Source of the DNA: an uncultured bacterium
GTDB lineage: Bacteria; Bacillota_I; Bacilli_A; RFN20; CAG-826
Assembly (NCBI GenBank): GCA_949295325.1
Contig: CASFKG010000001.1
Location: 174,779-238,778 of the forward strand
DNA length: 64,000 nucleotides
Direction of reading: 5' to 3'
Part shown: piece after piece, positions 2,723 through 47,660 of the stretch
How positions within the stretch are numbered: position 1 is the first letter of the stretch
Layout: each line of letters begins with the position of its first letter
Notes under the pieces: generated by a model
The model's database searches: none
Seen by the model: only the letters and a program-made list of their open reading frames with translations
What the model was told of the DNA's origin: nothing
Program-made: the position numbers and the translations under genes

Positions 2723-2746
2723 GCCGCCCGCGCGGGCGGCTTTTTT
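2723..2746. terminator. intrinsic terminator hairpin between the convergent ferredoxin and ribU-like genes
   Basis: GCCGCCCG-CG-CGGGCGGC perfect stem followed by TTTTTT on the plus strand. Confidence 0.7.
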
Positions 2747-3441
2747 CATTGCCTGGCGGCCTTGATGAAGCGGTGGGTGTACCGGTAGCAGAGGAAAGTG
2801 GCGGCAATCACTATGGCGTCTTTCAGCAGATTGAACGGAAGAACGGCATAAAGGGCATAGGACCATCCGACGTCGCTGATCCAGGGCATCGCCAGCCGGC
2901 AAATGGCAAGCAAGGCGGCCTCGTCGAGGCCCGCCATGACGGAAGCATAGAAAGGAATAAGAACATAGACGTTGAGCAGCATCGCCGCGATTACCTGCAG
3001 CAAGGTCGCGACGGCGAAGCCGATTGCCACGCCTTTGAGATTGCGTTTCTTCGAATAGACGATCGCCGTCGGCAATACGAACAAAAGCGAAAGCAGCAAA
3101 TCCCCGAGCTCGCCGACGCCCATCGTGGAAGTCATCGGGAGCTTGACAATGGTTTTCACGAGGATGGCGCCGGCCGCGGCATAGGGTCCGTAGGCGAATC
3201 CGGCGATGAAACACGGTATTTCGTCGAAATGGATCGACAAAAACGAAGGAAAGAAAGGCAGGGAAAAATTAAAGACCGGCACCGCGTAAAGGATCGCGGC
3301 CAAGGCCCCGAAGCAGGCCGTCGCCGCGACGGTCCTCGCGGTCGAATGGCGTTTCAACGGATGTTCCTTGAAATAGATGACCGCGGTCAAGGCAAGTAGG
3401 ACAAGCAGGGCGATAAGCCCGCAGAGGTAGCGTACTTCCAT
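2746..3441 (-). CDS. ribU: ECF-transporter S component, riboflavin (RibU-like)
   Basis: Polytopic membrane protein with S-component-like FDEIPCFIAGFAYGPYAAAGAILVKTIVKL. It sits directly behind an FMN riboswitch. ATG at 3441 is preferred over the GTG at 3450. Confidence 0.8.
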   Translation of the reverse strand: MEVRYLCGLIALLVLLALTAVIYFKEHPLKRHSTARTVAATACFGALAAILYAVPVFNFSLPFFPSFLSIHFDEIPCFIAGFAYGPYAAAGAILVKTIVKLPMTSTMGVGELGDLLLSLLFVLPTAIVYSKKRNLKGVAIGFAVATLLQVIAAMLLNVYVLIPFYASVMAGLDEAALLAICRLAMPWISDVGWSYALYAVLPFNLLKDAIVIAATFLCYRYTHRFIKAARQ

Positions 3442-3590
3442 AAAAAACACCCCCGTGCAACGAGGGGATGAAAGACCGCTATCTTCCTTCCGGACTTTAC
3501 CGTTGGCTCCGTAATTTCACCGGATCATGCCCCTTAGGGCTCGCGGGCTTTACCGCCAGTTGACGAAACTCTCGTCACCCTGATGCGCCC
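3442..3590 (-). promoter_or_regulatory. FMN riboswitch (RFN element) with terminator-type expression platform
   Basis: The minus strand reads TCAGGGTGACGAGAGTTTCGTCAACTGGCGGTAAAGCCCGCGAGCCC...GATCCGGTGAAATTACGGAGCCAACGGTAAAGTCCGGAAGGAAGATAGCGG. This matches conserved RFN blocks. It is followed by the hairpin CCCCTCG-TTGCA-CGGGGG and TTTTTT immediately before the ATG. Confidence 0.85.
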
Positions 3591-3823: not shown

Positions 3824-6800
3824 TCAGGAAACGTAGACGAACCCGTCGTCGTCCATCTTGAGGCCGTGGCGGTTGTCGATCGCGGCCTTGAGGGCGGCCT
3901 TTACGTACTTTTTGCGCTTATCGGAAATGGTCTCGACCCCGAACATCAGGGCCGTCTGCTTGACTAGGTCGTCGGCGCTCATCCTGCCTTGGGCGAAGAT
4001 GATGTCGCTGAAGGCGTTGGAAAGCTCGATATAGGAAATGTCGGTGAGGTCGCGCCTCTTCTTCGCGTCGTCCTTGCCTATCTTCTCCACGCGGTAATAG
4101 GGCCAGGATTCCGGGACGAATCCGCTCGGATAATAGAATGGCTCGCTCCCGCAAATCTCGGTTACTTTCGGGGTGTCGCCGAGGGCGAGTTCGACCTCCG
4201 AACGGAATTTGGCGCCGAGCCTCTTCTGCCCGACCGCCTCCTTGACCTTCTCCATTACCATCCGGCGGGAAATGGGGCCTTCCCGGTCGATCAGGCGCTT
4301 CACCCCCTCGAAGACCCTTACTTCCTCCGCGGAGGCGCTTGGCAGGTTCATGTCGGCGTAGTCGTAGGGAATCTGGTTCGGGTAGAGGGTTATTTCCTTC
4401 CTCGCGAAAGTTACCGGCCCTCCTGTCGCGCTTCCGAATTCGTCAGGATCAACGGGTTCGTTTATCTTCGCGACTATGGCCCTTACGACCTGGTCGGGGT
4501 GGTCGAAATACTCGATGGACCAGAAACGCATCAGCCTCCACCTGAGTCCTTTCAGTATGGAAGGCTGCACGAGGTTGCGGTCCCGGCTGGTCGGGGTATC
4601 GACGTAGCTGGGTCCGTCGAGCAATATGCCGAGGGAATACTTTTCGGGATCATCCGGGTCGTTCACGGCGAGATCGAGGCGGAAGACGCTGGTACCTAGG
4701 TCGGTAACGACGCTGTACCCCAGTTTCCTCAGGTCCTCGGCCAGGTACTTGGCCACGGAATCGCGCCGCTCGTAGACCGCGTTGCCCTGGAGGTTCGGCA
4801 GATAGGATGTGCCTTCCGAGGCAAAGCTCAGGAAGTCGCGGAGGTACCTCGCCCCCTCGTTTTTGGCCCTTTCGGCCTGGATCATCGCGGGCAATATCGA
4901 GGAAAAGACGATCATTTCTTCCCTGGCCCTGGTTACCGCGACGTTCAGGCGGCGTTCGCCTTTATCGCGGGAAAGGGGGCCGAAGTTGAGCGAAAGGTTC
5001 CCGGTCTTGGGATCGGGTCCGTAAGTGACGGAAAACAGGATGACGTCCCTTTCGTCCCCTTGGACGTTTTCGAGGTTCTTCACGAAGATGCTTTCGCCGC
5101 CCGGGTTCGGATCGAGGCCGCGGAGTTTGGCCTCTTCCTTCTCGAGCAGGTCCATGATGAGGTTCTGCTGGGCTTCGTTGAAGGTGACGACGCCGATGGA
5201 GAGTTTCCTCTTTTCGGGGTCCTTGAGGCGACGGACTATTTCGTTTACCACGGCTTTGGCTTCGTCGCGGTTCACGCCGCGGCCCTTCTCGTAGCGTCCC
5301 TTGACGTAACGGAAGGAAACCGACTGCCTTTCCTTTTCGGGAGAAGGGAAGGTCAGAAGGGAGTTGCCGTAGAACTGGTTGTTGCTGTAGGCGATAAGCG
5401 ACTCGTGGCGGGAACGGTAATGCCAATTCAGGCGGTTCCTCTTAAGCCCCATGACGATGGCGTCGTCGAGGAGAGATTCGAGATCCTCGTCGAGGGAGTG
5501 GAAGTAGTCGCCCCCCTCGATGGAACCGGAGACGTTGGCGGCGAAGTAGTTGCTCGGCGGCATCTGCTGCTGATCTCCCGCGATGACGAGCGAATTGCCG
5601 CGCGAAATCGCGCCGACGGCCTCGGAGGTCGGTATCTGCGAGGCCTCGTCGAATATCACGGCATCGAACCTGTCCCCTTCTTGCAGGAACTGGGCTACCG
5701 ATAGGGGGGACATGAGGAAGCAGGGGCAGAGTTTGTGGATGAGTCCGCCGTAGGTGACGAATATGTTCCGGAGGCTGACGCCCCGGCCGCCGTTGCGGGC
5801 CAGTTTCTTTAGCTGGTAGACCTCGGTGGTCGCGGCCAGGTTCTCGCTTATCAGGGGATAGGACGAGGTTATCCGGCTCGCGGTTTCGACGACGCTTAGC
5901 CATTCTAATTCCTTCAGGTCGGCGCCGTAGCCTTCGATGAACTTCAGCACTTCTTCCCCGGAGAGAGTTTCGACGCCTTGGTCCTTGGAAGCATAGGCGA
6001 CGGCCTTGTAGCAGAGGGCATTCACGTAGGCATCCTCGAGGAGCCGGCCTTCGATGAGTCCTTCCTGGTAGGCTTCGACCAGGCCGTTAGGACATATGGA
6101 CTTTGCTTCGTCAAGAACCCCCAGGAACTTGACCCAGCCGCCCAAGAGTCCTTCGTTGGCGATCAAGGACGAAACCTTCTGCGCTTCCTTCTTGAAGTAC
6201 TCCCTTTCGTCGGGATAGCGGTCCAAGTCGAAGCCGAGATTGGCCTTGAGCTGGGTCTTGATGAAGGAGCGTTCCGAGAGGTGGCGGCGCAGTTTCCGGT
6301 CGTTTTGCTCGTATACCTTCGCGTAATCGCCGCCGGCCTTGGCGAGGACATCGGCAATTCTGTCGAAGTCGACGTTCTTCGAGGCGTCCATCTCGCGGAG
6401 CAGTTTCCCGAGTTTTATCGAATCCTCGTAGCCTTTCTCCACGGCCTCGTAGGCACCGGCCTCACCGGGAAGCGACTGGAAGACGTAGCGCGGGTAGCTG
6501 CCGAGGTTTTCGGCCTGTTTCTGCAGCGAATCGATGCACCTTAAGGCTTCAACCGTGGAAAGGACCAGTTTCTTGCCGGGTTTGCCTTTGCCGAAATAGT
6601 ACTCCTTGAGCGTCGTCTGGATGGTCCTTAGACTCTTCCCGCGTTTGAAAACGGAGGAGGCGGCATATTCTTCCTTAAGGGAAGCCAGTTCTTCGATATC
6701 AACGCTATAAACCTGCGGTTCGAAATCGCGGGCAAGCCCGTTCTTCAGCGCGCATATTTCCTTATTGAGTTTCAGGTATTTCCTCAAGGTATCTTCCGCG

Positions 6801-9667
6801 TCGAGGAAGACGTCGCTTCCGAGTTTGTCGACCAACAGGTTTTCGGAGCCGGAAAGGATATTGGTGATGTCCACGAACAAAGAGGCGTTCTTCCTGGTCG
6901 TGTATAGGCCGGGGAGTTTCCTCAGGCAGTTGTAGAGGTCGAGGGCAATCTCCCTGTCGAGTTCCACCAAGGGCTTTATGGCCTTGGGGAGGGCTTCCCT
7001 GTCCAGCAGGGAATAATCCCTTTTCTGATATGGCACGAAGGGGTTTTCGAGATAGCCGCGGTTAAGATTGGAATAAGCAGCGACCTTCTCTATGGCCTTC
7101 ACGGTCTCCTCGTATTTTTCCTTGGTTAGCCCCCGGACGTACTCCTCGTCCACTTCGAAGAGGCCCTTTCCGTCCAGGCTCGAAAGATAAAGGAGGATCG
7201 CATCGTAAATCGAAACGAAATACCCTTCCGGCGTGTGGAGCCTTTCGAGCAACGAGTTGAGTTTTGCGCGTTTCTCCTCGAGGAGATTCGATTTCCCCGC
7301 GTAATCTTCGGCGCCTTTGAGGGGCCCGAGGTCGAGAAGAGAAGAAATCGACTTGAGCACCTCGGATTTGCTGGTTTTCACGCTGGAAAGCTGCAGGCAG
7401 AAACGTCCCAGCCCCAGTTCGTCGAGGCGGTTTTTCACCACGTCCAGGGCCACTTCCTTTTCGGCGACGAAAAGCACCGACTTCCCGTGGAAGAGGAAAT
7501 TCACGATCATGTTCGCGATGGTCTGGCTCTTCCCGGTTCCCGGCGGACCGTCCATGATGAATGACTCCCCGTTGAGGGCATCGCTTATGGCCTTTATCTG
7601 GCTCGAATCCGCCGGCAAGGGAAGCGCGAGGTCGCCCGGACGGATCTTCTCGTCGATTTCTCTCTGCTCGACCAAGCCGGTTTTCTCTTCCCACTTCTTC
7701 TCGCCCGAAACGAAGGAAGCGATGAAGGGGTTTGCGAGCAGTTCCTTCTTCCTGGTCCTAAGATCGTTCCACATGACGAAGTGGGCAAAGCCGAACAACC
7801 CGGCGGTTGAAACGTTTTCGTAAAGCATCCACCCCTTCTTCTGGCTTATCTTTTCGCGGATGAAGTTGTAGATGAGCCGCAAATCCGGCAAACCGTCGTC
7901 CCGGGTCCGCATGCTGCCCGAAATCGGCGTGAAATCCATCCCGAAGGCCTCGCGGAGGTATTCGAATAAGGTGGTGTTCAGGCCCAGTTCGTCGAGGTCG
8001 TAGGAAAAGGAGTAATAGTTGGCGCTTTTGCGGCGGGGAAGCGAAATCGGCAGCAGGAATACCGGCGCGTACATGGCGCCCTTGCCGACCGAGGCCGCGT
8101 GCTCGTTGTCGAACCACTTGAGCATGCCGAGGGTGAGGAAAAGCGGATTGGAGCCCGATTCTTCGAGGGCGGTATTGGCTTTCCGGGTAAGCGATTTGAA
8201 ATAGCTTTCGACGTCGCCGGATTTCACGGTCGCGAGTATCTGCCCTTTCTTATAGGCTTCCTCGGAAAGCTTCCCGTATGCCTGGGGGGAGAAGGTCAGT
8301 ATCTTCTCTGCGTCGATTACGTTCATCGCCCCGAACTGCAGGGGGACGACCGACATCCTGTTGCGGGCGGAGAGTTCCTTGACCATCGCTTCGGCATCGG
8401 GGACCACGAACTGGACGAGGCCGCTGCCGAAGCGGAGGTTTATGAGTCGGTTGCCGAGATTGAGGTCGAGAAGCTTCTCGAGCCAGTGGTCGAAACGGTT
8501 TTTGTCCCCCCGGTCGTCGCCGGAGATGTACCTTCTGGCCGATTCATCGACTTTCGGCGTGCCGTAGTCGTCTTCTATTTCGAAACTCGGCAGGTCGACT
8601 TTGACTTCCTCTTTGACCTTGTGGGGAGTCGGTATCGGGAGCAGATGCTCCTTCCGGCACATGTTGATGTCGAGGGCGTAGCGGAACCTCGCTTCCACCG
8701 ACAAAGTCGCATAGCCTTCCGAGACCGCCTGGTCGAACGGGGCTATGTAGGAAGAATGGGCCATCGTCACGTCGATGACGGAAAGGTGTTCGAAACCCTT
8801 GGAGGCCGCGGTTACGAGATAGGATCCGTTTTCCTCGTAGGGGGCGGCGCTGGAATCTTCGTCGAGCCAGACCCCGACCATGGCATGGCTTCTCAGCACG
8901 ATTATCAGCGGCCTAAGTCCGATCGATTCGCACATCGAGGCGTAAAGGAGCGAGAAATCGAGGCAGGTAGCCACTTTCTGCGTCAATACCTGATAGGGAA
9001 GGCGTACCCTTTGGAAGGTTTTTTCGAACGAGGTCGGCGGATTGCTGTACCTTATCCCCTGCTTTTCCAAAGCCCTATACAAGGCGTCGAGTTCCTCGTA
9101 GACCATGTTCGGGTCGTGGTACTGGTAGCCGTAAAAACCGTCCCTTCCGGTCTTTTCCCTAAGTTCCTCCGCGGCGGCGGCGACTATCTTCCTTACTTCG
9201 TCGTCGTTTGGGGTCACGAAACTCGCGAGTATTTCCGGAATCCGCATCTCGGAGGCCGACTCCTCGATCGGCATCAGTTTGAGGCCGTAGGCCTTGCTCG
9301 AAAGGACATTCCCCCCGGCATCGACTATTTCGAAGCTCAGGGTTTCTTCCACCGCCTCGCTAAGGGAATAGAGTTCTAGTGCCTTAACGAATATCGAAAA
9401 GGAAGCGATGAGGGTCTTCTTCCCCTGCTCCAGCAAGGACAGGTGGACCGGGGCGATTTCGATGCCGGGAAAGGAGGACGATATAAGCAAATCGACTTCC
9501 CTTATATCGACCGCGGATTTGTTTTCGACGGTTACCGACCTGAGGAAGGAAAAGGCGTTCTGCCGGTTATTCCCGGAGACGCGCTTCAGTTCCATTTCGG
9601 CCTGGTAGTTTACATATGTAAACTCCTTTAGTCCTTCGATGGTGATGCTAAGGGAGTTTTCGGCCAT
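3824..9667 (-). CDS. giant multidomain protein: N-terminal transglutaminase-like core, DUF4011-like region, SF1 (Upf1/AAA_11-AAA_12 type) helicase, Vsr/DUF559-type REase-like domain, DUF3320-like C-terminus
   Basis: Uninterrupted 1,947-aa ORF. Motifs: KVATCLDFS / RSHAMVGVW / SVIDVT; FDHWLEKLLDLNLGNRLINLRFG; DGPPGTGKSQT; VIFDEASQ; VIAGDQQQMPP; WHYRSRHESLI; VVTFNEAQ; VQGDERDVILFS; LNVAVTRAREEM; RLDLAV..ILLDGPSY..RFWS. Confidence 0.9.
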   Translation of the reverse strand: MAENSLSITIEGLKEFTYVNYQAEMELKRVSGNNRQNAFSFLRSVTVENKSAVDIREVDLLISSSFPGIEIAPVHLSLLEQGKKTLIASFSIFVKALELYSLSEAVEETLSFEIVDAGGNVLSSKAYGLKLMPIEESASEMRIPEILASFVTPNDDEVRKIVAAAAEELREKTGRDGFYGYQYHDPNMVYEELDALYRALEKQGIRYSNPPTSFEKTFQRVRLPYQVLTQKVATCLDFSLLYASMCESIGLRPLIIVLRSHAMVGVWLDEDSSAAPYEENGSYLVTAASKGFEHLSVIDVTMAHSSYIAPFDQAVSEGYATLSVEARFRYALDINMCRKEHLLPIPTPHKVKEEVKVDLPSFEIEDDYGTPKVDESARRYISGDDRGDKNRFDHWLEKLLDLNLGNRLINLRFGSGLVQFVVPDAEAMVKELSARNRMSVVPLQFGAMNVIDAEKILTFSPQAYGKLSEEAYKKGQILATVKSGDVESYFKSLTRKANTALEESGSNPLFLTLGMLKWFDNEHAASVGKGAMYAPVFLLPISLPRRKSANYYSFSYDLDELGLNTTLFEYLREAFGMDFTPISGSMRTRDDGLPDLRLIYNFIREKISQKKGWMLYENVSTAGLFGFAHFVMWNDLRTRKKELLANPFIASFVSGEKKWEEKTGLVEQREIDEKIRPGDLALPLPADSSQIKAISDALNGESFIMDGPPGTGKSQTIANMIVNFLFHGKSVLFVAEKEVALDVVKNRLDELGLGRFCLQLSSVKTSKSEVLKSISSLLDLGPLKGAEDYAGKSNLLEEKRAKLNSLLERLHTPEGYFVSIYDAILLYLSSLDGKGLFEVDEEYVRGLTKEKYEETVKAIEKVAAYSNLNRGYLENPFVPYQKRDYSLLDREALPKAIKPLVELDREIALDLYNCLRKLPGLYTTRKNASLFVDITNILSGSENLLVDKLGSDVFLDAEDTLRKYLKLNKEICALKNGLARDFEPQVYSVDIEELASLKEEYAASSVFKRGKSLRTIQTTLKEYYFGKGKPGKKLVLSTVEALRCIDSLQKQAENLGSYPRYVFQSLPGEAGAYEAVEKGYEDSIKLGKLLREMDASKNVDFDRIADVLAKAGGDYAKVYEQNDRKLRRHLSERSFIKTQLKANLGFDLDRYPDEREYFKKEAQKVSSLIANEGLLGGWVKFLGVLDEAKSICPNGLVEAYQEGLIEGRLLEDAYVNALCYKAVAYASKDQGVETLSGEEVLKFIEGYGADLKELEWLSVVETASRITSSYPLISENLAATTEVYQLKKLARNGGRGVSLRNIFVTYGGLIHKLCPCFLMSPLSVAQFLQEGDRFDAVIFDEASQIPTSEAVGAISRGNSLVIAGDQQQMPPSNYFAANVSGSIEGGDYFHSLDEDLESLLDDAIVMGLKRNRLNWHYRSRHESLIAYSNNQFYGNSLLTFPSPEKERQSVSFRYVKGRYEKGRGVNRDEAKAVVNEIVRRLKDPEKRKLSIGVVTFNEAQQNLIMDLLEKEEAKLRGLDPNPGGESIFVKNLENVQGDERDVILFSVTYGPDPKTGNLSLNFGPLSRDKGERRLNVAVTRAREEMIVFSSILPAMIQAERAKNEGARYLRDFLSFASEGTSYLPNLQGNAVYERRDSVAKYLAEDLRKLGYSVVTDLGTSVFRLDLAVNDPDDPEKYSLGILLDGPSYVDTPTSRDRNLVQPSILKGLRWRLMRFWSIEYFDHPDQVVRAIVAKINEPVDPDEFGSATGGPVTFARKEITLYPNQIPYDYADMNLPSASAEEVRVFEGVKRLIDREGPISRRMVMEKVKEAVGQKRLGAKFRSEVELALGDTPKVTEICGSEPFYYPSGFVPESWPYYRVEKIGKDDAKKRRDLTDISYIELSNAFSDIIFAQGRMSADDLVKQTALMFGVETISDKRKKYVKAALKAAIDNRHGLKMDDDGFVYVS

Positions 9668-9708
9668 GGGAGAATTATATCCTAAGGGAAGTGTTCGGGC
9701 AGGAGAAA

Positions 9709-10551
9709 CTAGTCGGAAGAGAGTTTTCCCAAAAGCTTCAGGAAATCGGATTTCTTCTTTTCGCTAGAGAAGTCGAACACGATGTGGGTGACCCCTTCTT
9801 CGATGGAAAGGGCCCCGACCGACCGGGCGAGCCTCCCCAGATCGTTCAGTTCTTCCCCGGGGTTGAGGAGGGACTTGGCCCTTTCCTCGGTTTCGCGGAC
9901 GGATAGGCCCCTCCCGGCGGCCATCTCCGCGAGGTCGAGGCAGTCGTTATAGGCTAGAGGCACGAGGCTTCTGGCATGCCCGTAGGTCAATTTCCCGTCG
10001 GCGATCATCCTGAGGACCGGTTCGGGAAGCTTCAGCAGCCTGAGGATGTTGGTAACCTGCGACCTAGAAGCATGGCTAAGGGAAGAGAGGGTCTGCTGGG
10101 AATAGCCGAATTCCCGGCTCAAGGCCTGGTAGACGAGAGCCATTTCCACGACGTTGGAGTCCTTTTGGTCGCGGATATCGGCGAGAAGCATGAGAAGCGT
10201 TTCCTCGTCGTCTTTTTCCGTGATCACGCAGGGAACCTCGCTTAGGCCGGCGAGCCTGGCGCCGTAATAGCGCTTCCTTCCGAGTATCAACTCGTAGCGT
10301 CCGTAGCTTGGCCTAACCACCAGCGGGTTGTACAGCCCCCTTTCGGAAATACCCTTTGCGAAGTGTTCGGTCGAGCTTTTGCTGGGTCTGACCGACCTCA
10401 CGACTTTGTTGTCGTCGATGGAAGATAACGGCAGAAGGCGGCCTCCGTCGTTCTGGTATTCCTTTTCCAGCTCCGCGATTACGTCGTTGCGGGCGAACTT
10501 CCTCATTAATGAGGAAAGTGACGGATTCCGCTTCGCTTTAGTTTCCTTCAT
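9709..10551 (-). CDS. parB: chromosome partitioning protein ParB/Spo0J
   Basis: ParB N-terminal box LILGRKRYYGARLAGLSEVPCVI and HTH region. 14-nt overlap with parA. Confidence 0.9.
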   Translation of the reverse strand: MKETKAKRNPSLSSLMRKFARNDVIAELEKEYQNDGGRLLPLSSIDDNKVVRSVRPSKSSTEHFAKGISERGLYNPLVVRPSYGRYELILGRKRYYGARLAGLSEVPCVITEKDDEETLLMLLADIRDQKDSNVVEMALVYQALSREFGYSQQTLSSLSHASRSQVTNILRLLKLPEPVLRMIADGKLTYGHARSLVPLAYNDCLDLAEMAAGRGLSVRETEERAKSLLNPGEELNDLGRLARSVGALSIEEGVTHIVFDFSSEKKKSDFLKLLGKLSSD

Positions 10552-11305
10552 GCTCGATTACTTCCCTAGCCAAGGCAAAATAGGCCAACGACCCTTGGGC
10601 ACTCGGCCTCCAGTTGGTCACGGGTTCACCGCGCATGACCGCTTCGGCGACCGAAATGTTCCGCGGGACTATAGCGGCAAAGGTCGTTTCCTTGAACATG
10701 GATTTGATTTCCTGCATGACTTCGATCCCGAGTTTCGTGCGCGGGTCGAACATGGTAAGCAGAAGCCCTTCGATCCGAAGAGACGCGTTGTAGCTCCTCT
10801 GTATTTGGGCAATCGAAGACAAAATGGCGGCCACCGCTTCCATCGCGAAGTACTCGCATTGGACCGGGATTATGACCGAATCGGCGGCAACCAAGGCGTT
10901 GATGTTGAGCAACCCCAGCGAAGGGGGACAGTCCAGAATGAAATAGTCGAAGTCGTTCCTAAAGGGCTCGATGGCTTCCCTTAGCCTCGAAAAAGGTGCG
11001 GCATCGCCATATGACTTGGGGTCGTAGGAGGCGAGGCGCAGATTGCTCGGGACGATATAGACGCCGCTGTTCTTGTCCAGTATCGCCAACCCGTCAAGGC
11101 CTTTCTCTTTGCTAAGCAATTCGAAGGTCGTAGCCTCGATGCCGGTAACGTCTAGGCCATAGGATCTGCCCGCGTTGCCCTGGGGATCCATGTCGATTAA
11201 GCATACCTTCTTGCCCAGTTTCGAAAGGGCGCAGGAAAGGTTTACGGCAGTCGTGGTCTTCCCGACTCCGCCTTTTTGGTTGGCGATGGCGATGCAGCGG
11301 CTCAT
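10538..11305 (-). CDS. parA: chromosome partitioning ATPase ParA/Soj
   Basis: Deviant Walker A IAIANQKGGVGKTTTAVNL, DMDPQGN, and a typical 255-aa length. Confidence 0.95.
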   Translation of the reverse strand: MSRCIAIANQKGGVGKTTTAVNLSCALSKLGKKVCLIDMDPQGNAGRSYGLDVTGIEATTFELLSKEKGLDGLAILDKNSGVYIVPSNLRLASYDPKSYGDAAPFSRLREAIEPFRNDFDYFILDCPPSLGLLNINALVAADSVIIPVQCEYFAMEAVAAILSSIAQIQRSYNASLRIEGLLLTMFDPRTKLGIEVMQEIKSMFKETTFAAIVPRNISVAEAVMRGEPVTNWRPSAQGSLAYFALAREVIEHEGN

Positions 11306-18549: not shown

Positions 18550-18600
18550 TACTACGCAACTTTGAAAGGTTGGTTTTATTTTGGAGGAGCATCCCCGCAT

Positions 18601-20685
18601 ATGAAAACGAAAATCAAAGCGATCGCGGTGCTTGGAGCCTTCGTCGGAGCCCTTGCCCTAACCGGGTGCAACGGCGCCACCCCGAACAATGGGGGCAATA
18701 TCCTGACCTATACCGACAGCAACGGCAATGTCGTCGGTTATACGGCTGAGGAACTGCTGCGCGACTACCAAGCCAACGGCTCGGCCTTGTCGACCCAATT
18801 CGACAAGATCTACGAGGTGTTGATCCGCAAGTATTACAGCACCCCTGCCCAGGCGACCGTTTATCAGAACATCCTCAACAATGCCCAAAACGCCGTCCAA
18901 AGCGATATGGAAACGGCCCAGAACAACGCCGCAAGCAACGGCACGACCTATGAAGCCGAACTGCAGTCGATACTCGATAGCCACTCGGTGGAAAACATCG
19001 ACGAACTTCTCGAGTATTACATCTATAACGGCACCGGGACCGGCGAAAACGACTTTGTCGGAGAAAAGGGTACATTCGAGACCGACTTCTACGCCGATAA
19101 CATCGCTGCCATCAGGGACGGCAGCGCCGAAGGGCTGGACGGTACTGACCCCATCTTCCCGGAATCCGAAGAATACGGCGACGGGAACAACGGCTGGATA
19201 AAGGAAACCATCCCCTACCACGTCCGCCACGTGCTTATCAATGTTTCCGCATCCTATACCGACTTCGTTACCGGCGAAATAACCGAGGACGATGCCAAGG
19301 CCCTTTCGACCGCGGTATTCTCCCTTGCCGGCGATAGCGGCAACCAGACTCCCGCCACTCGCAGGCAGACCTTCGGCCAGATTGCCAATACCCAGAGCGA
19401 TGACGAAACTAGCGCCGTACGCTACGGCGATCTCGGCATCATGCCGGACAGCTTCGTCAACGAATTCCGCCTTGGCATATACGCCTACGAATCCTTATAT
19501 AACAAGGAAACGACCACGACCGAATTCGGCCGTAAGTACGTCTACAAGATCACCCCGGGGCTTACCCAAGAAGCGACCAGCCAAGCCGACGTGGACGAAG
19601 ACCAGACCGTCGGTTACGGTTCCTCCGAAACGACGATCAACGCCTTCTTTGCCCACGGAGAAGACTACGATGCCGAGATAAACAGCGTATCGAGCGGCAT
19701 CGGGACCATCCCCTACGGCGCTGCCGTCGCCTTGGCCAAGACCGCGGACATCGACCGCGATGATAATGACCAACTCGTAAATGAAGGAATCGCCACCACT
19801 TATCCCCGCAACATCATATTCAACAAGTACTTCAACAAGCACAACGTCTGCGTCATCACGCCGAACGACATCGCCTACAACAACGGTAGCATCAGCGCGG
19901 ACGCCAAAGACGGCGAATACAGCGCGACTTTCGGTGCCCTCCCGGGATTCCAGTACGACACCACCGATGTCTTGCCCCAGTTCGGACATAACGTTCTGAC
20001 CAACGAATCCGGCCAGATCATATTGGCCGTCCGTGCCGGTACCAGCGATTATAGCGGCATCCACTTCATAGTCATTGAGCGCAGCGGCCTTAGCCAGTAC
20101 GGCTCTTCCATCGCGGACGGCAAGGTCACCGTCAATTCACAGAAGACCGACGGCGTAGCCGACCTGAGCGAGTACTATACCCTCCATACCACCGCCGAAT
20201 CCTCCTATCCGGAGGACAGCGAAGGCAACGACCTCAACACCTACGTCAACTTCAACACCCAGACCGTTACCGGCGGAAGCAGCGACAACAACCAGACGTC
20301 CCGCGTTTCCACCATCCGTAGCGCCATCCAGGGCTATAGCGACGCCATTTCCACCTACATCTTCCAGCAACTAATGGAAGAAGGAACCGAAGAGGGTGCC
20401 AAGATCACCTTCCTCGACAGCAAGCTGGAAAGCGACATGCAGCGCTACATCCGTCTGCGCCGCACCTCGGCCGAAGACGATGACTTCGAGGCCCTCAAAG
20501 ATGCCTGGAGCACCTATGCGGAACTCCTTACCGCTCAGAACTCCATGCGCAGCGTCGGCTACGACGAAAACGGGGGCGTCACCAACGGACGTCCGTACCT
20601 TGTTCCGGAACGCTGTGCCATCGGTTACGGCACCCATACCGGAAGCGATTGGACGGAAGGAGGAGTCTGCTACTATGCTAACTAA
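18601..20685 (+). CDS. PrsA-like parvulin (PpiC) foldase lipoprotein, very long form
   Basis: Signal and lipobox MKTKIKAIAVLGAFVGALALTGC. Parvulin blocks YHVRHVLINV, FGQIANTQSDDETSAVRYGDLGIMPDSFVNEF and a distal SGIHFIVIER. GGAGGAG lies upstream of the ATG at 18601. Confidence 0.7.
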   Translation: MKTKIKAIAVLGAFVGALALTGCNGATPNNGGNILTYTDSNGNVVGYTAEELLRDYQANGSALSTQFDKIYEVLIRKYYSTPAQATVYQNILNNAQNAVQSDMETAQNNAASNGTTYEAELQSILDSHSVENIDELLEYYIYNGTGTGENDFVGEKGTFETDFYADNIAAIRDGSAEGLDGTDPIFPESEEYGDGNNGWIKETIPYHVRHVLINVSASYTDFVTGEITEDDAKALSTAVFSLAGDSGNQTPATRRQTFGQIANTQSDDETSAVRYGDLGIMPDSFVNEFRLGIYAYESLYNKETTTTEFGRKYVYKITPGLTQEATSQADVDEDQTVGYGSSETTINAFFAHGEDYDAEINSVSSGIGTIPYGAAVALAKTADIDRDDNDQLVNEGIATTYPRNIIFNKYFNKHNVCVITPNDIAYNNGSISADAKDGEYSATFGALPGFQYDTTDVLPQFGHNVLTNESGQIILAVRAGTSDYSGIHFIVIERSGLSQYGSSIADGKVTVNSQKTDGVADLSEYYTLHTTAESSYPEDSEGNDLNTYVNFNTQTVTGGSSDNNQTSRVSTIRSAIQGYSDAISTYIFQQLMEEGTEEGAKITFLDSKLESDMQRYIRLRRTSAEDDDFEALKDAWSTYAELLTAQNSMRSVGYDENGGVTNGRPYLVPERCAIGYGTHTGSDWTEGGVCYYAN

Positions 20686-22405
20686 GAAGAAACTGGGCGG
20701 CCTGGCCGTCACCATAGCGGCCTCGGCCCTGATGCTCGGCGCCTGCAACACCGTCGAAGCACGCCCGACCGATGCCGAATACTACCAGAACATCCTCAAC
20801 CTCAAGGACATCGTGAACAACCAGATGAAGGAAATCTACGATGCCGTCGTCGTCCCCGGCGATACCAATTCCGAGACCGTCCTCAATAACGTTCTCTACC
20901 GTTACGCCACCACGATGTTCGGAAACTTCTACGGCGAAGAAGGGGCCGCTAGCCTCAAAAACGCCGTCCTCGGCAACGATGAAACGATGCTCCAAGCCAT
21001 TGCCGATACCTACGAGGTCTACGGCGGCAACGCCGAAAAGGTCAAGGCCATGTACCGCAGCATCGTCATGCGCCTCGAAGAAGTCTTCCTTGGCTACGTC
21101 CAGGACGAAACCTACCAGAACCGCAAGGTTTTCGAGGAGGAAGAATTCTACGATGCCCGGATTGCCGAATACTACGACTTGCCGGAAGTGGAGTCGACCG
21201 ACTTCAATAGGAAGCTGGTCGATGGTTCCATCCGCCTCGAGGAAGGGACCTTGGGCGTCGACGATACCCTCGTCGGGACAAACGGCTATTTCGGAAACAT
21301 TCTCGACCGCTACCAGCCCTACATCGAAGTGGCGGTTCTGCCGACCATCTACCGTAGCCTTCTTACGAGCCAGTACCTCATCGAGGAGAACTACAGGGCC
21401 CTCGGACTGAGCTACGCCCGCAAGGTCGACATCATCAACCTCGCCAACAACAGCGACCCGAATTACGTCTACGCTACCCGCAACCTCATGGATGCCTATA
21501 GCGACCTCGTGATAAACGGGGGCTACGAAGAGGACAATGCCGGCACCACGGTCGATGCCAATACATACGGTTTCGAGTTCCTCTCTTCCCTTTACAAGGG
21601 AACCTACGATGCCGGAAGCGATGCTACCGGGGCAGCCCTCGCGGAAGCCATCTACGAGCAGGCCGACTGGACCACCGGTACGATTTCTAGCGATCCGCTC
21701 GACCCGGACGGAGGGGAAACCACCTACTACCACGAGTCTTCCCTAGGCAAGATCTACGACGACTACCTGAAACTGACCGAAAGCCGTTACAGCGACGACG
21801 ACACGATCCGCAACGACTTCACCGGCAACGGTGCCTACGCCCCGGAAATCGGGTTCATGATCAAGTACCAGGACCTCGTGGCCGAAAGCCATACCACCCA
21901 CGGATGGTACACTTCCACCGGCCTCCCGAGCGACACCATCCCCTCGGCCATGCAAACTAGGCTCTTCCGCATGAATGTCGCTAACGAAGTCGACTTCAAC
22001 CTGACCGAAGATGGCGATGCCTACGTCGACGACCTCGACATGGATTACGGTTGGTATAGGGGAGGAAACTACTATCTCGTACCCGCCAACTACGAATCCG
22101 GGGACGAAACTCCCTACGTCGTTACCGATGCCGGCAACTGGTACATCGTCAAGGTCGACGAAGCCGTCAAGACGGCCAAACTGAGCGAAACCAACGACCA
22201 GAGCTACGCCAACATGCCCAAGCATTCCGACGATGCGCTCTATCTCGACAACATCGCCAGGGAAGTTGCCTACACCCTTTCTAGCAACGACACCTACGTC
22301 AGTTCGGCCAACCAGTATTACGTGGAACAGATGGCCATCTCCTTCCACGACGACGACGTCTACGACTACTTCAAGTCCACTTTCGCCGGACTCTTCAACG
22401 ATTAA
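20675..22405 (+). CDS. large secreted lipoprotein (function unknown; compositionally similar to the preceding gene)
   Basis: MLTKKKLGGLAVTIAASALMLGAC lipobox. ATG at 20675 is preceded by GGAAGGAGGAG and overlaps the upstream gene by 11 nt. D/Y/N/T-rich, with a C-terminal NWYIVKVDE. Confidence 0.75.
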   Translation: MLTKKKLGGLAVTIAASALMLGACNTVEARPTDAEYYQNILNLKDIVNNQMKEIYDAVVVPGDTNSETVLNNVLYRYATTMFGNFYGEEGAASLKNAVLGNDETMLQAIADTYEVYGGNAEKVKAMYRSIVMRLEEVFLGYVQDETYQNRKVFEEEEFYDARIAEYYDLPEVESTDFNRKLVDGSIRLEEGTLGVDDTLVGTNGYFGNILDRYQPYIEVAVLPTIYRSLLTSQYLIEENYRALGLSYARKVDIINLANNSDPNYVYATRNLMDAYSDLVINGGYEEDNAGTTVDANTYGFEFLSSLYKGTYDAGSDATGAALAEAIYEQADWTTGTISSDPLDPDGGETTYYHESSLGKIYDDYLKLTESRYSDDDTIRNDFTGNGAYAPEIGFMIKYQDLVAESHTTHGWYTSTGLPSDTIPSAMQTRLFRMNVANEVDFNLTEDGDAYVDDLDMDYGWYRGGNYYLVPANYESGDETPYVVTDAGNWYIVKVDEAVKTAKLSETNDQSYANMPKHSDDALYLDNIAREVAYTLSSNDTYVSSANQYYVEQMAISFHDDDVYDYFKSTFAGLFND

Positions 22406-37776: not shown

Positions 37777-38020
37777 CGTCGACGTAGATTTCTAGATACT
37801 TGGCCTCGTCCTTCCTTAGGCTTAGCTCATATCCTCTGATGGTGATTTCGAGTGGGTCACCCAGTGGTGCTTTCTTCCTTAGATAAACTTTCACTCCGGG
37901 AGTTAACCCCATATCGAAAAGGCGGCGTCTAACAATTCCTTGTGCTTCTACCTTTTCGACTCTCGCTGCCATTCCCACTTTTAGCCGGTCCAGTGTAGTC
38001 AACATATAACCTCCTAACAA
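37751..38020 (-). CDS. feoA: FeoA domain protein
   Basis: SH3-like FeoA pattern, LKVGMAARVEKV...RRRLFDMGLTPGVKVYLRKKAPLGDPLEI. Confidence 0.85.
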   Translation of the reverse strand: MLGGYMLTTLDRLKVGMAARVEKVEAQGIVRRRLFDMGLTPGVKVYLRKKAPLGDPLEITIRGYELSLRKDEAKYLEIYVDDADGDYEH

Positions 38021-38232
38021 ACGAAGATACGACGGGAAATGTCTCTATCGAGAGCAAGCCTGGTCCCTTTCACCACGATGACGGTTCCGCCCTTCTGATC
38101 CCGAGTGAGAACTTCCAAGGTAGAACTTGGCAAAATGCCGAGTTCCCTAAGCCTTTGGAGCAGTTTTTCATCGTCAATCGCGACTTTGACTATCCTCATG
38201 GTCTTTTCGACAGGAGCTATCGCAAGTGGCAT
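38014..38232 (-). CDS. feoA: FeoA domain protein (second copy)
   Basis: MRIVKVAIDDEKLLQRLRELGILPSSTLEVL...GTVIVVKGTRLAL. SD GGAGG lies 7 nt upstream of the ATG at 38232. An ATG at 38238 is also possible. Confidence 0.75.
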   Translation of the reverse strand: MPLAIAPVEKTMRIVKVAIDDEKLLQRLRELGILPSSTLEVLTRDQKGGTVIVVKGTRLALDRDISRRIFVC

Positions 38233-38245
38233 TTCCATACCTCCG

Positions 38246-38259
38246 TTAGTTTTAACTAA
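38246..38259. promoter_or_regulatory. candidate DtxR/IdeR-type operator in the feoA 5' region
   Basis: Perfect palindrome TTAGTT-TT-AACTAA abutting the feoA SD. Its half-sites resemble the TTAGG..CCTAA iron box. Confidence 0.35.
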
Positions 38260-38353
38260 CCATGCACAATATACACGCCTCGGATGGGGAATCAAGGAAA
38301 AGTTATATTTGGCTAACTTGTGTTTTCTTGGAATCGGCCTTTTAATTTCAACT

Positions 38354-38737
38354 ATGGAAAACACGAAGACCCACGAATCGAGCGAAGACTATCTCGAAAG
38401 AATACTGATGCTTTCGGAAAACGGCACTAAGACCGTAAAGGCAATAGATTTGGCTAAGTCCATGGGTTTCAGCAAGCCTTCGATTTCAATCGCCCTAAAG
38501 AAACTCGAGCAGGAAGGCTACGTATATCTAGGCGAACGCCAGTCCCTCCATCTTAGCGAAGAGGGCCTGAAAATAGCCTCGGCCATTTACGAGCGTCATG
38601 AAACATTGGCGAAAATGTTGATGGCTTTAGGCGTAAGCGAGGAAACCGCCTACAAGGACGCCTGCCATATCGAGCATGATTTGTCCGATGAAACCTGGGC
38701 GGCCATCAAGAACCACTTCCAACGGATCATCAAGTAG
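38354..38737 (+). CDS. DtxR/MntR-family metal-dependent transcriptional regulator
   Basis: SSEDYLERILML...KAIDLAKSMGFSKPSISIALKKLEQEGYV wHTH and the metal-site region HETLAKML..ACHIEHDLS. Divergent from feoAAB. Confidence 0.85.
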   Translation: MENTKTHESSEDYLERILMLSENGTKTVKAIDLAKSMGFSKPSISIALKKLEQEGYVYLGERQSLHLSEEGLKIASAIYERHETLAKMLMALGVSEETAYKDACHIEHDLSDETWAAIKNHFQRIIK

Positions 38738-40048
38738 CTATTCTTCCTTTTTGTCCTCTTCGATTTTGCGAATGAGGACTTTTCTTATGACCTTGCGGGC
38801 CCCGAAGGCCAATACTTTGAAGGTATAGCCGCCGAATTCCAGGGATTTGGAAGTATCGATTCCGGATTCCCCGGATAGTTCGTTTAGAAAGCCTCCCAAG
38901 GTTTCGGAGTCGGTGTCGGTTTCGTCGTAATCGATGCCTAGTTCCCCGAAAAGTTCCTCGAGGTTCATGGCCCCGTCGGCGATGTAGGTTCCTTCTCCCC
39001 GCTCTACGAAAGGTTCGTCAGCATGGTCTGTTTCGTCCCATATTTCCCCGACTATTTCTTCTATTATGTCCTCGGCTGTAACAATGCCTTCGAAGCCGCC
39101 GTATTCGTCCATGATCGCGGCGATACGGGTTTTCTTGGCCCGCATCTGGTCGAGGATGTCGCTTACGTCCTCAGAGCGGTGGAAGAAAATAAGCGGACGG
39201 ATGAGAGGAGCGATCGAGTCCCCTTCACCCCTGAGGTTCAGAGCAACGATGTCCTTGAGGCGGACATAGCCCAAGATGTTGTCGATCGTGTTCTCGTAGA
39301 CCGGGAAGCGCGAATGGCTGAAAGCCCCGGGCCTGGACAATATGTAAGAAGCCGGTTCGTGGATGGATACCGCGAATACCTTTACCCTAGGGGTAAGTAT
39401 TTCGAAGGCTTTCGCCGTTGCAAAATCCACCGTGCCGCGGAGGAGGTCCGCTTCTTCTTCGGAGAGGGTCCCCTTTTCTTCGCTTTCGTCGATCATCTCC
39501 TGCAGATCGTCTTCCTGCGACTTCTCTTCGGGGAACATCTTGAGTATGGGATAGCTGACTACGTTGCCTAATCCCCCGACGAGGAAAGTGATGGGCAAAG
39601 TGACCCAATAACAGCACTGGATTATCGGGGCATAATTGATCGAAAGCGTTAGATTTTTTATTTTTCCGAAGCTTTTTGCGATGATTTCGCCAAAAGTAAT
39701 CTTGAAAACCAAAACAATTAACGAGGCAATCAGACCGAAGGTTTCCTGAAGGGAACCGTCGGCTATGCCGAAAACTTCTATGGCCAAGGAAACGCCAAGC
39801 AAGGTCGCAACCGAATCAAGTCCCGCGTTGATCGTATCGTTGAATAGAAGGATGGTAGAGATGGTTTTGTCATAGCCTTGGCTTAACTTATAGGCAACCT
39901 TCCTTTTATACGAATTCGGATGGTGGGCAACTTCCCTATCAAGACGGCTTAAAGATATCGAACCATAGGCCATGTCCGCGGAGGAAAAGAAGACCGAGCC
40001 GGCCAGTAGGACAACCAAAACGATGGAATAAACGATAATCAGGGTCAT
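38738..40048 (-). CDS. CNNM/DUF21 - CBS pair - CorC_HlyC family membrane protein (TlyC/hemolysin-like)
   Basis: N-terminal DUF21 TM region, CBS pair, and a C-terminal transporter-associated domain (GGYTFKVLAFGARKVIRKVLI). Confidence 0.9.
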   Translation of the reverse strand: MTLIIVYSIVLVVLLAGSVFFSSADMAYGSISLSRLDREVAHHPNSYKRKVAYKLSQGYDKTISTILLFNDTINAGLDSVATLLGVSLAIEVFGIADGSLQETFGLIASLIVLVFKITFGEIIAKSFGKIKNLTLSINYAPIIQCCYWVTLPITFLVGGLGNVVSYPILKMFPEEKSQEDDLQEMIDESEEKGTLSEEEADLLRGTVDFATAKAFEILTPRVKVFAVSIHEPASYILSRPGAFSHSRFPVYENTIDNILGYVRLKDIVALNLRGEGDSIAPLIRPLIFFHRSEDVSDILDQMRAKKTRIAAIMDEYGGFEGIVTAEDIIEEIVGEIWDETDHADEPFVERGEGTYIADGAMNLEELFGELGIDYDETDTDSETLGGFLNELSGESGIDTSKSLEFGGYTFKVLAFGARKVIRKVLIRKIEEDKKEE

Positions 40049-41169: not shown

Positions 41170-41529
41170 ATGGAAATGATAATAAGGAATTGCCCTTTAC
41201 ATTTCAATATGGAGCCCCTGGGAGCCAATGAGCTGTTTGGACGATTAGGACTGCATTGGGGTTTCTGTTCCCCGTTTAGCGGCATAGTAGAAGCGAAAAA
41301 CAGAAAAGTACTAAGCCATGTCGGGGCAAAATGACTTGCCTACCGTTTGTTTTCAATAAAGAAAAATTGCATACCTAATCATCTGCTTACGGATATGTCT
41401 ATGGAAGGGGCTGAAAACAATAATTTAATATATTGTTTTTTGTCCGTTTCATGTCCGTATGGGATTTACATTTACTCAAAATAGTCATTTTCAAAATTGA
41501 TAAAATTGACTATATAATAAAAACAGACA

Positions 41530-42774: not shown

Positions 42775-42991
42775 ACTGAAAATTCCCAGCCCGGTTGCAG
42801 ACTTCCGGCTAGGGCAAAAGAAACGGCCTTTCGAACCGAACTTAACCGCAAGTAAGAATGTTTTTTCCTTTTCGCCGATATAGCGGCAGTTAATGGCATA
42901 AAGGAAACCAATTGGTAATCACCGCCAGCATCCAAAGCCCGGAAATTGGTATACAAATAAAATAAGGAATTTACCGGCGGCCCTCGTTAAA

Positions 42992-43015
42992 GAAAAAAAG
43001 TCCGTAAACCGGACT
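42992..43015 (-). terminator. terminator after tRNA-Leu
   Basis: On the minus strand, AGTCCG-GTTTA-CGGACT followed by TTTTTTT. Confidence 0.6.
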
Positions 43016-43064
43016 CGTCTATCGGACTTTGATGCCGACGATGGCATCGGAAGCTATACGCTCG

Positions 43065-43150
43065 TGGTGGGCCCAACAGGAATCGAACCTGCACGGGGGA
43101 TGCCCAATAGATCCTAAGTCTATCGCGTCTACCAATTCCGCCATAGGCCC
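43065..43150 (-). tRNA. tRNA-Leu (anticodon TAG), CCA encoded
   Basis: GGGCCTATGGCGGAATTGGTAGACGCGATAGACTTAGGATCTATTGGGCATCCCCCGTGCAGGTTCGATTCCTGTTGGGCCCACCA. 7-bp acceptor stem, anticodon loop CTTAGGA, long variable arm, T-loop TTCGATT. Confidence 0.9.
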
Positions 43151-43159
43151 GCGCGAGTG

Positions 43160-47580: not shown

Positions 47581-47655
<75 letters not shown>

Positions 47656-47660
47656 ATTCG

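Follow-up and report, generated by a model that had tools for sequence, protein, structure and literature searches.

The closest described relatives of the gene analysed here are anti-phage and candidate defence proteins which are encoded by single genes. Hhe (NCBIfam NF042953, PADLOC PDLC02194) is a single large protein which, like ours, contains DUF4011, a split superfamily-1 (SF1) helicase and a Vsr-type nuclease. It is reported to be active against the phages lambda, T3, T7 and PhiV-1, and the nuclease-site mutation E1731A abolishes defence (bioRxiv 10.1101/2022.06.16.496414). T7 class II genes, which act in DNA metabolism, behave as triggers of Hhe. Experimental support within this group comes only from Hhe. 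ProA (NCBIfam NF058533, "anti-phage protein ProA") owes its "anti-phage" label solely to the name of the NCBIfam model; our full-text literature search found no defining paper for ProA and no mention of PDC-S37, which is listed in PADLOC-DB v2 as a candidate, not validated, single-gene system. Mokosh (MkoA/MkoC), Nhi and Hna have in common with our protein the general logic of an SF1 helicase coupled to a nuclease, but are without DUF4011, MTES_1575, DUF3320 and the transglutaminase (TGase)-like module. The Upf1-like SF1B helicases (Upf1, IGHMBP2 and Sen1) carry all of the SF1 motifs, as ours does, but lack the nuclease, DUF4011 and TGase-like domains.

We analysed a stretch of 64,000 nucleotides from an uncultured bacterium (the window), which contains an intact single ORF on its minus strand encoding 1,947 aa plus stop from an ATG start (Table 1). 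The ORF list bore out an initial annotation of this DNA which had described one uninterrupted 1,947-aa frame, and all of the motifs quoted in it were present in the translation at the residue numbers given.

Table 1 Features of the ProA-like gene and its protein, with positions in the window.
Feature	Window position	Strand	Residues (aa)	Basis or remark
ProA-like helicase-nuclease	3824..9667	(-)		ORF list, NCBIfam ProA, PADLOC PDC-S37
Candidate promoter TATAAT box	9674..9679	(-)		Ends 6 nt upstream of ATG; read from sequence
All-beta (Ig-like sandwich) domain	9263..9667	(-)	1-135	AF2 and Foldseek
Transglutaminase/cysteine-protease-like core	8633..9235	(-)	145-345	Candidate triad C235, H261, D333
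DUF4011 (PF13195)	7955..8476	(-)	398-571	Pfam E 1.8e-26
Helicase domain 1A, N-terminal part, Walker A GPPGTGK713S	7418..7609	(-)	687-750	Pfam AAA_11/AAA_19
Walker A			D706-GPPGTGK713-SQT	
Insertion of about 580 residues splitting domain 1A	5684..7417	(-)	751-1328	Poorly conserved
Helicase motifs II-VI, domain 1A C-terminal part and domain 2A	4898..5683	(-)	1329-1590	
Motif II			V1337-IFDEASQ	
GDQQQMPP			1364-1371	
WHYRSRHESLI			Starts about 1415	
VQGDERDVILFS			1535-1546	
LNVAVTRAREEM			1574-1585	
MTES_1575 (Vsr/DUF559-like restriction-endonuclease fold)	4463..4744	(-)	1642-1735	Pfam PF18741
Nuclease-domain motifs			RLDLAV with D1665; ILLDGPSY with D1684; RFWS with W1710	
DUF3320-like tail, predicted repeated winged-helix-like units	3827..4375	(-)	1765-1947	

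Judged by its profile matches, the protein is a divergent, peripheral member of the named ProA family, which is related to Hhe, and not a new system. The alignment to ProA was collinear, in one stretch and end to end (1478.0 bits; aa 36-1912 against positions 6-1902 of the 1903 in the profile), and ProA shares with our protein its single-gene form, its length of about 1.9-2.0 kaa and its domain order, including the N-terminal beta-sandwich/TGase-like module. This score lies 22 bits under the 1500-bit NCBI cutoff, so strict membership of the equivalog fails and automated annotation would say only "DUF4011 domain-containing protein". Relatives of the same length and architecture pass the cutoff (P0019 with 1590 bits, P0051 with 1524 and P0053 with 2098), as do three plasmid copies (2225, 2197 and 1772 bits), whereas our protein and its closest Bacilli relatives (1482-1485 bits) form a peripheral clade which is only about 30-33% identical to the high-scoring ProA members. 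PDC-S37 was matched with 947 bits (E 4.6e-285) over positions 8-1535 of its 1550, corresponding to the DUF4011, helicase, nuclease and tail regions of our protein (aa 390-1932); as this profile begins at aa 390, it excludes our 390-aa N-terminal module. The Hhe profiles aligned to aa 1038-1736, or to aa 1295-1737 plus a second stretch (PADLOC E 4e-130), with no alignment onto the N-terminal module. Hhe is a different family-level clade, since it gave only 629 bits against a cutoff of 2000 and a partial alignment in two stretches.

The initial annotation had placed the domain combination outside the known systems and had stated that no role of the DUF4011 helicases was defined by experiment. 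Both statements were wrong: NF058533 covers the full architecture, N-terminal module included, and Hhe is anti-phage in a nuclease-dependent manner (bioRxiv 10.1101/2022.06.16.496414). The accompanying guess of a helicase-nuclease directed at mobile DNA agrees with the library matches to ProA, PDC-S37 and, in part, Hhe, but the claim of novelty is unsupported. As a discovery the gene therefore matters little, since current annotation resources already class proteins built in this way as defence proteins, under ProA, PDC-S37 and the relative Hhe; it does document a divergent ProA-like clade in uncultured Bacilli.

Of the domains listed in the initial annotation, four are solid by their Pfam hmmscan scores (DUF4011, AAA_11, AAA_12 and MTES_1575), while DUF3320 and Transglut_core were sub-threshold. 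The DUF4011 match spans the full profile (1-158), and W395, L399, L400, D401 and N406 are invariant. The SF1 set is intact, with GPPGTGKS, DEASQ, GDQQQMPP, VQGDERD and NVAVTRAR invariant in 26 homologues; the last four of these motifs lie within aa 1329-1590. AAA_11 was matched in two stretches (61 bits) and AAA_12 at aa 1397-1589 (E 3.2e-20). The best PDB sequence matches were to Upf1 and IGHMBP2 over aa 686-802, where G707-T716 are invariant, and to Sen1 over aa 1329-1587, where D1340, E1341, Q1344, G1364, D1365, Q1536-D1541 and R1572-A1577 are invariant. These matches were to the helicase core only, and no solved structure of the family was found by PDB sequence search. The stretch which separates Walker A from motif II, initially put at roughly 620 residues, is real and measures 624; no other part of the protein is conserved so poorly (mean column identity 0.28-0.46). 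The insertion which lies in it had no Pfam match by hmmscan and is far larger than in the Upf1-like helicases, although domain 1A of Upf1 likewise carries inserted subdomains, 1B and 1C. Both the ProA and the Hhe profile run on through the C-terminal part of this insertion, so it is a feature of the family.

The MTES_1575 match (E 1.8e-19; 70 bits against a cutoff of 38.2) is the only nuclease-type Pfam domain in our protein. The AlphaFold2 (AF2) model of this domain has a pLDDT of about 90, and its Foldseek matches were 3hrl and I-Bth0305I (3r3p), with a target-normalised TM of 0.72, a probability of 1.0 and an E value of only about 0.1; TnsA was also among them. The Pfam match and the matching fold together uphold the Vsr/DUF559-type fold which had been placed at about aa 1640-1725. 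In the homologue alignment D1684, D1696 and R1697 are invariant, D1665 is at least 90% conserved and position 1713 is always acidic (E/D). DUF559 proteins carry Glu one or two positions before the equivalent of D1684, where the residue in this family is hydrophobic or otherwise non-acidic throughout (L/T/V/I/C/F). This difference leaves the catalytic competence of the nuclease in the ProA-like protein putative. Between 26 and 45 homologues were compared, and the catalytic residues vary little or not at all among them.

DUF3320 was matched in the tail at aa 1789-1822 with 23.9 bits, just below the 25-bit cutoff. The AF2 model of the tail has a pLDDT of 92-98, with weak Foldseek matches to the cullin WHB, JetB and ESCRT-II winged helices, and the modelled winged-helix tail suggests the binding of double-stranded DNA. 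This bears on whether the enzyme could instead be directed at RNA, as a Upf1-like RNA helicase which surveys phage transcripts in the manner proposed for Mokosh and in which the "nuclease" would be a binding module. The nearest solved helicase cores are indeed those of the RNA/DNA helicases Upf1, IGHMBP2 and Sen1, and PADLOC gave weak matches to MkoA and MkoC. However, the Mokosh matches were limited to the helicase core (90-95 bits), and that to MkoC (89.7 bits) covered aa 1415-1591 only, so a full-length Mokosh type II match was not obtained; over Mokosh, Nhi and Hna together the matches kept to the helicase core at 45-95 bits, and Nhi and Hna gave none in PADLOC as good as E 0.01. As it is DNA endonucleases that have a fold of the Vsr/DUF559/TnsA/I-Bth0305I type and the tail also points to DNA, we regard an RNA-directed role as highly improbable.

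The N-terminal region was modelled by AF2 as part of aa 1-680 (mean pLDDT 85.4). The model of the first 135 residues consists of strands (E6-131; pLDDT mostly 80-91) and matched beta-sandwich domains, namely those of FixG-related 2r39, HAP2 domain 3 and Caf1M, in Foldseek. For the TGase-like core which follows, Pfam Transglut_core was matched at aa 189-252 with an E value of 0.0045 and 17.7 bits, under the 23-bit cutoff. Foldseek matched the core to TG2 (3s3p), TG3 (1l9m), BDI_1141 (3kd4) and 3isr (E 4e-4 to 3e-3), with low TM values because the query has several domains; the bacterial structures matched include putative cysteine proteases. All of the 45 homologues compared have C235 and H261, and D333 is at least 90% conserved among them; the Cys235/His261/Asp333 set is kept across thousands of relatives. 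The initial reading of this region as TGase-like is therefore below the Pfam cutoff but is supported by the AF2 model, the Foldseek matches and the conserved residues. The module was found almost only at the N-terminus of helicase-nucleases of roughly 1.9 kaa. It could be an active protein-directed enzyme, such as a protease, deamidase or cross-linker, though we think this unlikely. An active module might detect a phage protein or act against it, or might switch the enzyme on via self-cleavage, and ProA-type proteins would then be dual immune enzymes targeting both protein and DNA. Of all parts of the family's architecture, the conserved Cys-His-Asp is the one least understood, and it offers a clear target for mutagenesis.

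The family, which numbers roughly 2,000 representative homologues, is patchily distributed across Bacillota, Bacteroidota, Actinomycetota, Planctomycetota, Verrucomicrobiota, Pseudomonadota and archaea. It was found in 487 plasmid records, including 212 conjugative and 137 mobilizable; the copy on an IncF Klebsiella plasmid lies between IS elements and adjoins an AbiJ-NTD4 gene. Searching E. coli genomes with this Klebsiella plasmid ProA gene by megablast and blastn gave no match. Phage genomes carry almost no members of the family, with 1 full-length match in 50,697 records, and our gene is not phage-like, since PHROGs gave nothing beyond a helicase family that has no annotation and a weak match to exonuclease V. 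No conserved partner gene was found, as at most 3 of the 58 loci surveyed (313 neighbours) shared a homologous neighbour, and for this reason the "stand-alone" character claimed initially holds. Some family loci adjoin PglZ, DrmA/DrmD, JetA/JetC, RT_UG19 or AIPR genes, so that BREX, DISARM, Wadjet, DRT and AIPR genes sometimes lie beside family members, in a count of 141 neighbours made without a matched control.

Taken with the spread over several phyla and a sister genome which lacks the gene (see below), the plasmid records indicate that the family behaves as accessory and mobile. On the strength of the curated library matches, the conserved catalytic residues, the lone gene, this accessory distribution and the occasional defence-gene neighbours, we consider it reasonably probable that the gene product is a defence enzyme made of one polypeptide, belonging with the DUF4011 helicase-nucleases of the ProA / PDC-S37 / Hhe group. 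Its function would most likely be that of a stand-alone ATP-driven DNA translocase-nuclease which restricts phage or other mobile DNA. The main targets could be plasmids or other conjugative elements and not phages, if the enzyme served in anti-plasmid defence or in competition between elements. Plasmids often carry the family, one GTDB locus adjoins Wadjet JetA/JetC, and nothing in the principle of a translocase-nuclease restricts it to one kind of incoming DNA; but the phenotypes reported for Hhe are against phages and the NCBI name for the family is anti-phage, and we judge plasmids to be quite unlikely as the main targets.

Under the defence reading, we propose that the protein acts alone, using ATP to load onto and translocate along foreign DNA. 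This DNA would most likely comprise replication or recombination intermediates arising from phage DNA metabolism, which the C-terminal nuclease would cut. Nucleic-acid binding and autoinhibition may fall to the DUF4011 region together with the large insertion and the winged-helix tail, and the N-terminal TGase-like module would be a sensor or regulatory domain, possibly catalytic.

The purely housekeeping context of the gene in this lineage counts against the defence reading. It lies 41 bp downstream of parB, between parB and a unit comprising an FMN riboswitch and an ECF transporter. Upstream are the suf operon, mnmG, rsmG, parA and parB, and on the downstream side the riboflavin ECF transporter, cmk and der. 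The gene order is conserved in four related genomes, in which the gene has been inherited vertically at the rate of housekeeping genes: its identities of 75% and 65% compare with 72-77% and 66% for mnmG and 76-84% and 69% for parA. Divergence at the pace of housekeeping neighbours is less typical of defence genes. Recent horizontal acquisition was rejected, as the GC content is like that of the rest of the window and divergence tracks that of the flanking genes. The gene is absent from a fifth, sister genome with identical synteny (L095). Its slot there holds an unrelated 344-aa ORF; a BLASTP E value of 0.6 and the lack of any Pfam match led us to reject this ORF as a remnant. In the genome analysed here the gene is a long-resident chromosomal copy, and the slot which it occupies, a short way downstream of parAB, is variable.

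In this lineage the protein might therefore be a domesticated chromosome-maintenance or DNA-repair factor with no part in immunity, for example one which processes replication or segregation intermediates near the origin. Its place beside the mnmG-rsmG-parA-parB block, the conserved gene order, the identities which track mnmG and parA and the unremarkable GC content would all fit, and a large DUF4011 gene in P. aeruginosa is reported to be core, being present in every isolate. Such a role nevertheless seems rather improbable to us, given that the syntenic sister genome lacks the gene, that other family members occur in unrelated contexts, including on plasmids between IS elements, and that the closest curated families are defence proteins. 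A universally conserved housekeeping gene in a fixed replication or repair context, the outcome which the initial annotation had set against its own proposal, is not what is seen across the family, although the parAB-adjacent position and vertical inheritance partly echo it locally. Read as a defence-type gene, this copy has long been kept in one chromosomal slot beside parAB and has evolved as slowly as housekeeping genes.

No defence island was seen within about 15 kb of the gene in the window. A low-GC stretch at 38-44 kb contains transporters, an unknown ORF and a patatin-like gene, with no defence system recognisable by Pfam. An operon partner downstream of the gene was considered and rejected, since what lies there is an ECF S-component and an FMN riboswitch that has a terminator-like hairpin of its own. 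A generic sigma-70 and terminator scan was uninformative, as shuffled sequence gave at least as many hits and in part more; it missed the TATAAT box because no -35 element was recognised. TATAAT or TATACT is conserved at an equal distance from the gene in four syntenic genomes. The gene is probably transcribed from a promoter of its own, and the mRNA would then be leaderless or nearly so.

The 1,947-aa helicase-nuclease described in the initial annotation was present in the ORF listing as one uninterrupted reading frame, and all of the motifs quoted there were found in its translation at the same residue numbers. Of the domains which had been named, Pfam recovered DUF4011, AAA_11, AAA_12 and MTES_1575, while DUF3320 (23.9 bits vs a cutoff of 25) and Transglut_core (17.7 bits vs 23, E = 0.0045) matched only below threshold. 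The helicase core is split, with 624 residues (approximately 620 had been estimated) between Walker A (K713) and motif II (D1340/E1341); this segment gave zero matches in Pfam and has the lowest conservation in the whole protein. The GC content of the gene (0.55–0.59) is the same as in the remainder of the window.

Coordinates of features in the window, in the helicase-nuclease protein (aa) and at one compared locus
Feature	Position	Strand	Remarks
Helicase-nuclease ORF	3824-9667	-	1947 codons, ATG start
DUF4011	aa 398-571		Pfam, E 1.8e-26
AAA_11	aa 687-750		Pfam, around Walker A
AAA_12	aa 1397-1589		Pfam, E 3.2e-20
MTES_1575	aa 1642-1735		Pfam, E 1.8e-19; Vsr/DUF559-like restriction-endonuclease fold
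ECF-transporter substrate-specific component	2746-3450	-	probably riboflavin transporter; directly downstream of FMN riboswitch
Terminator-like hairpin	3450-3466
FMN riboswitch	3474-3590	-	Rfam RF00050, 72.5 bits
TATAAT box	9674-9679	-	ends 6 nt before helicase ATG
parB	9709-10551	-
707-aa ORF	18562-20685	+	no significant Pfam match
669-aa ORF	20396-22405	+	no significant Pfam match
Tandem CNNM/CBS transporter paralogues	38738-40048, 40045-41169		low-GC stretch
414-aa ORF	41530-42774		low-GC stretch; no Pfam match
tRNA	43068-43150		low-GC stretch
Patatin-like phospholipase	43930-45186		low-GC stretch
Three tRNA genes	47584-47888	-	cluster
Unrelated 344-aa ORF (genome L095)	9839-10873	+	between parB and ECF transporter gene

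The domain combination had been thought new and uncharacterised, which our searches did not support, as it is already covered by the NCBIfam equivalog model NF058533, "anti-phage protein ProA". This model matched the protein in one stretch (aa 36-1912, profile 6-1902 of 1903) with 1478 bits, so that the protein shares the architecture and length of ProA but falls just below NCBI's naming threshold (curated cutoff 1500). Homologues scored 1482 (P0002, 75% identical to the window protein), 1485 (P0010), 1524 (P0051), 1590 (P0019) and 2098 bits (P0053), and copies from an Acinetobacter soli plasmid, Bacteroides finegoldii and a Klebsiella pneumoniae plasmid scored 1772, 2197 and 2225 bits respectively, making ours a peripheral family member. 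It adds a new member, scoring slightly under the threshold, to a family which has already been named. A search of PADLOC-DB found matches to the candidate single-gene system PDC-S37 (aa 390-1932, profile 8-1535 of 1550, E = 4.6e-285) and to Hhe, a related DUF4011 helicase with a Vsr-type nuclease (E = 4e-130); MkoA and MkoC matched only the helicase core. The NCBIfam Hhe_antiphage model gave 629 bits against a cutoff of 2000. The ProA profile spans the first 390 residues of the protein, which are missing from that of PDC-S37.

For aa 1-680 an AlphaFold2 model based on 45 homologues (mean pLDDT 85.4) contains an all-beta domain (~aa 1-135) and, after it, an alpha/beta core (~aa 145-345). A Foldseek search of the PDB gave two classes of match, one to beta-sandwich domains and one covering both N-terminal domains (E = 4e-4 to 3e-3), among them human transglutaminases 2 and 3, the "putative protease" BDI_1141 (3kd4) and a putative cysteine protease (3isr); TM scores were low because the query is multi-domain, and these matches therefore lend support but do not settle the matter. 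Across 26 and 45 aligned homologues C235 and H261 were invariant and D333 was at least 90% conserved, a pattern which fits a putative Cys-His-Asp set. Querying 1.84 billion representatives with aa 1-390 (phmmer) returned 3,972 proteins at E ≤ 1e-3 and 326 at E ≤ 1e-30; the best 150 were mostly 1.7–2.3 kaa with the module at the N-terminus, so the module travels with the helicase family.

The model of aa 1590-1947 (mean pLDDT 88.3) shows a small alpha/beta nuclease domain and then repeated winged-helix-like units, which resemble cullin WHB, JetB and ESCRT-II domains. The best Foldseek matches of the nuclease domain were the DUF559-like NGO0050 protein (3hrl) and the I-Bth0305I catalytic domain (3r3p), each with a target-normalised TM of 0.72 and probability 1.0 but an E value of only ~0.1, and TnsA was a further structural match. 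D1684, D1696 and R1697 are invariant among homologues, D1665 is kept in at least 90% and all have Glu or Asp at position 1713. The single gene encodes an intact SF1 ATPase, a nuclease-fold domain that is conserved, winged helices of the DNA-binding type and an N-terminal module with conserved Cys, His and Asp residues.

We consider it probable that this is a ProA/Hhe-type defence helicase-nuclease; the defence interpretation made at first reading was reasonable and agrees with curated knowledge. A literature search found no primary paper on ProA, so its anti-phage label comes solely from the curated model name. For Hhe, the substitution E1731A is reported to abolish weak anti-T7 activity, and T4 to escape restriction (bioRxiv 10.1101/2022.06.16.496414); the PhageMaP preprint reports seven T7 class II DNA-metabolism genes as triggers and toxicity of Bas63 gene 40 confined to Hhe cells (10.1101/2024.10.10.617714). 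A PDB sequence search found no family member with a solved structure. Reasoning from Hhe and from the protein's anatomy, we propose that the enzyme would be inactive until it met DNA structures arising from the DNA metabolism of phages or other mobile elements, and would then translocate using ATP while the Vsr-like domain cut DNA; the N-terminal module may act as a sensor for a phage factor or as a regulator of the enzyme. These individual steps are much less certain than the family-level reading, and an RNA-directed role seems very improbable.

The gene lies 41 bp downstream of parB; parA, rsmG, mnmG and the suf operon, all encoded on its strand, are also upstream. It is followed by an FMN riboswitch, an ECF substrate-specific component, two small unknown ORFs, cmk and der. 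A GATATAAT box of its own and a terminator-like hairpin make the riboswitch/ECF unit a separate transcription unit. A TATAAT/TATACT box ending 6–8 nt before the ATG is kept in four syntenic genomes (with equivalents in L001, L093 and L003), while elsewhere the parB-helicase spacer, 41–50 bp in length, varies, which suggests a predicted promoter of its own and a leaderless or near-leaderless mRNA.

This gene order, including the helicase gene, recurs in four other metagenome-assembled genomes. Identity of the helicase-nuclease (75% in L001 and L093, 65% in L003 and L094) tracks that of mnmG (72–77%, 66%) and parA (76–84%, 69%), indicating that the gene has been inherited vertically at this site and is strongly constrained. 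It should also be noted that ParB diverges more (62%, 56%) than the adjoining helicase-nuclease. Vertical inheritance, the parB neighbourhood and the core-gene status of the P. aeruginosa DUF4011 gene would all suit a domesticated role in chromosome maintenance, which we nevertheless think unlikely. In the more distant L095 (mnmG 61% identical) synteny is the same and the helicase gene is absent, its place being taken by an ORF which neither matches Pfam nor resembles the helicase. The gene is accordingly accessory, and the parB-ribU junction varies in content, behaving like a cargo slot.

Full-length relatives of this putative defence enzyme were found in Bacillota, Bacteroidota, Actinomycetota, Planctomycetota, Verrucomicrobiota, Pseudomonadota and some archaeal MAGs. 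At 58 loci, 313 ORFs lie no more than three genes away from a homologue; no homologous family recurred in more than 3 loci, and the helicase-nuclease therefore has no partner gene. Of 141 ORFs within two genes, strong PADLOC matches (E ≤ 1e-10) were PglZ (2 members), JetA and JetC, DrmA and DrmD, RT_UG19 (2), HEC-01A and mad3 (3), the others being ordinary genes; this count, which has no matched control, suggests some defence-island association. At one locus proS precedes the homologue and a KilA-N gene lies downstream, and another is surrounded by metabolic genes. Around P0019 (L086, 4655-7854) the homologue adjoins an AIPR abortive-infection protein, which carries an HRDC domain, and a Macro-domain protein; after these come several ORFs without a Pfam match and a MACPF-domain protein, and the region looks like a defence island.

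By tblastn, the family occurs in 487 plasmid records (including 242 from Klebsiella, 105 from Ralstonia and 37 from Acinetobacter), and among phages (50,697 records) the only full-length match was in an unannotated faecal contig. In pM63-1, a conjugative IncF plasmid, the homologue lies between IS1 and IS3 transposases and adjoins an AbiJ-NTD4 gene, and on Acinetobacter soli pGFJ1 it sits amid toxin-antitoxin modules. A mainly anti-plasmid role we judge to be unlikely. The Bacteroides finegoldii "plasmid 29" (NZ_OY725931.1) may be a chromosomal fragment despite its label, because rpsA, glutamine synthetase III and bglX surround the ProA homologue; a reverse-transcriptase family gene abuts it.

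Elsewhere in the window, the 707- and 669-aa ORFs are encoded on the opposite strand, and the GC skew of their region is strongly negative; L093, L094 and L095 carry a ~700-aa gene without a Pfam match at the equivalent site upstream of sufC. At ~38000-44000 the GC content falls to 0.45–0.49 (~0.55 elsewhere), and this stretch may be a small acquired island.
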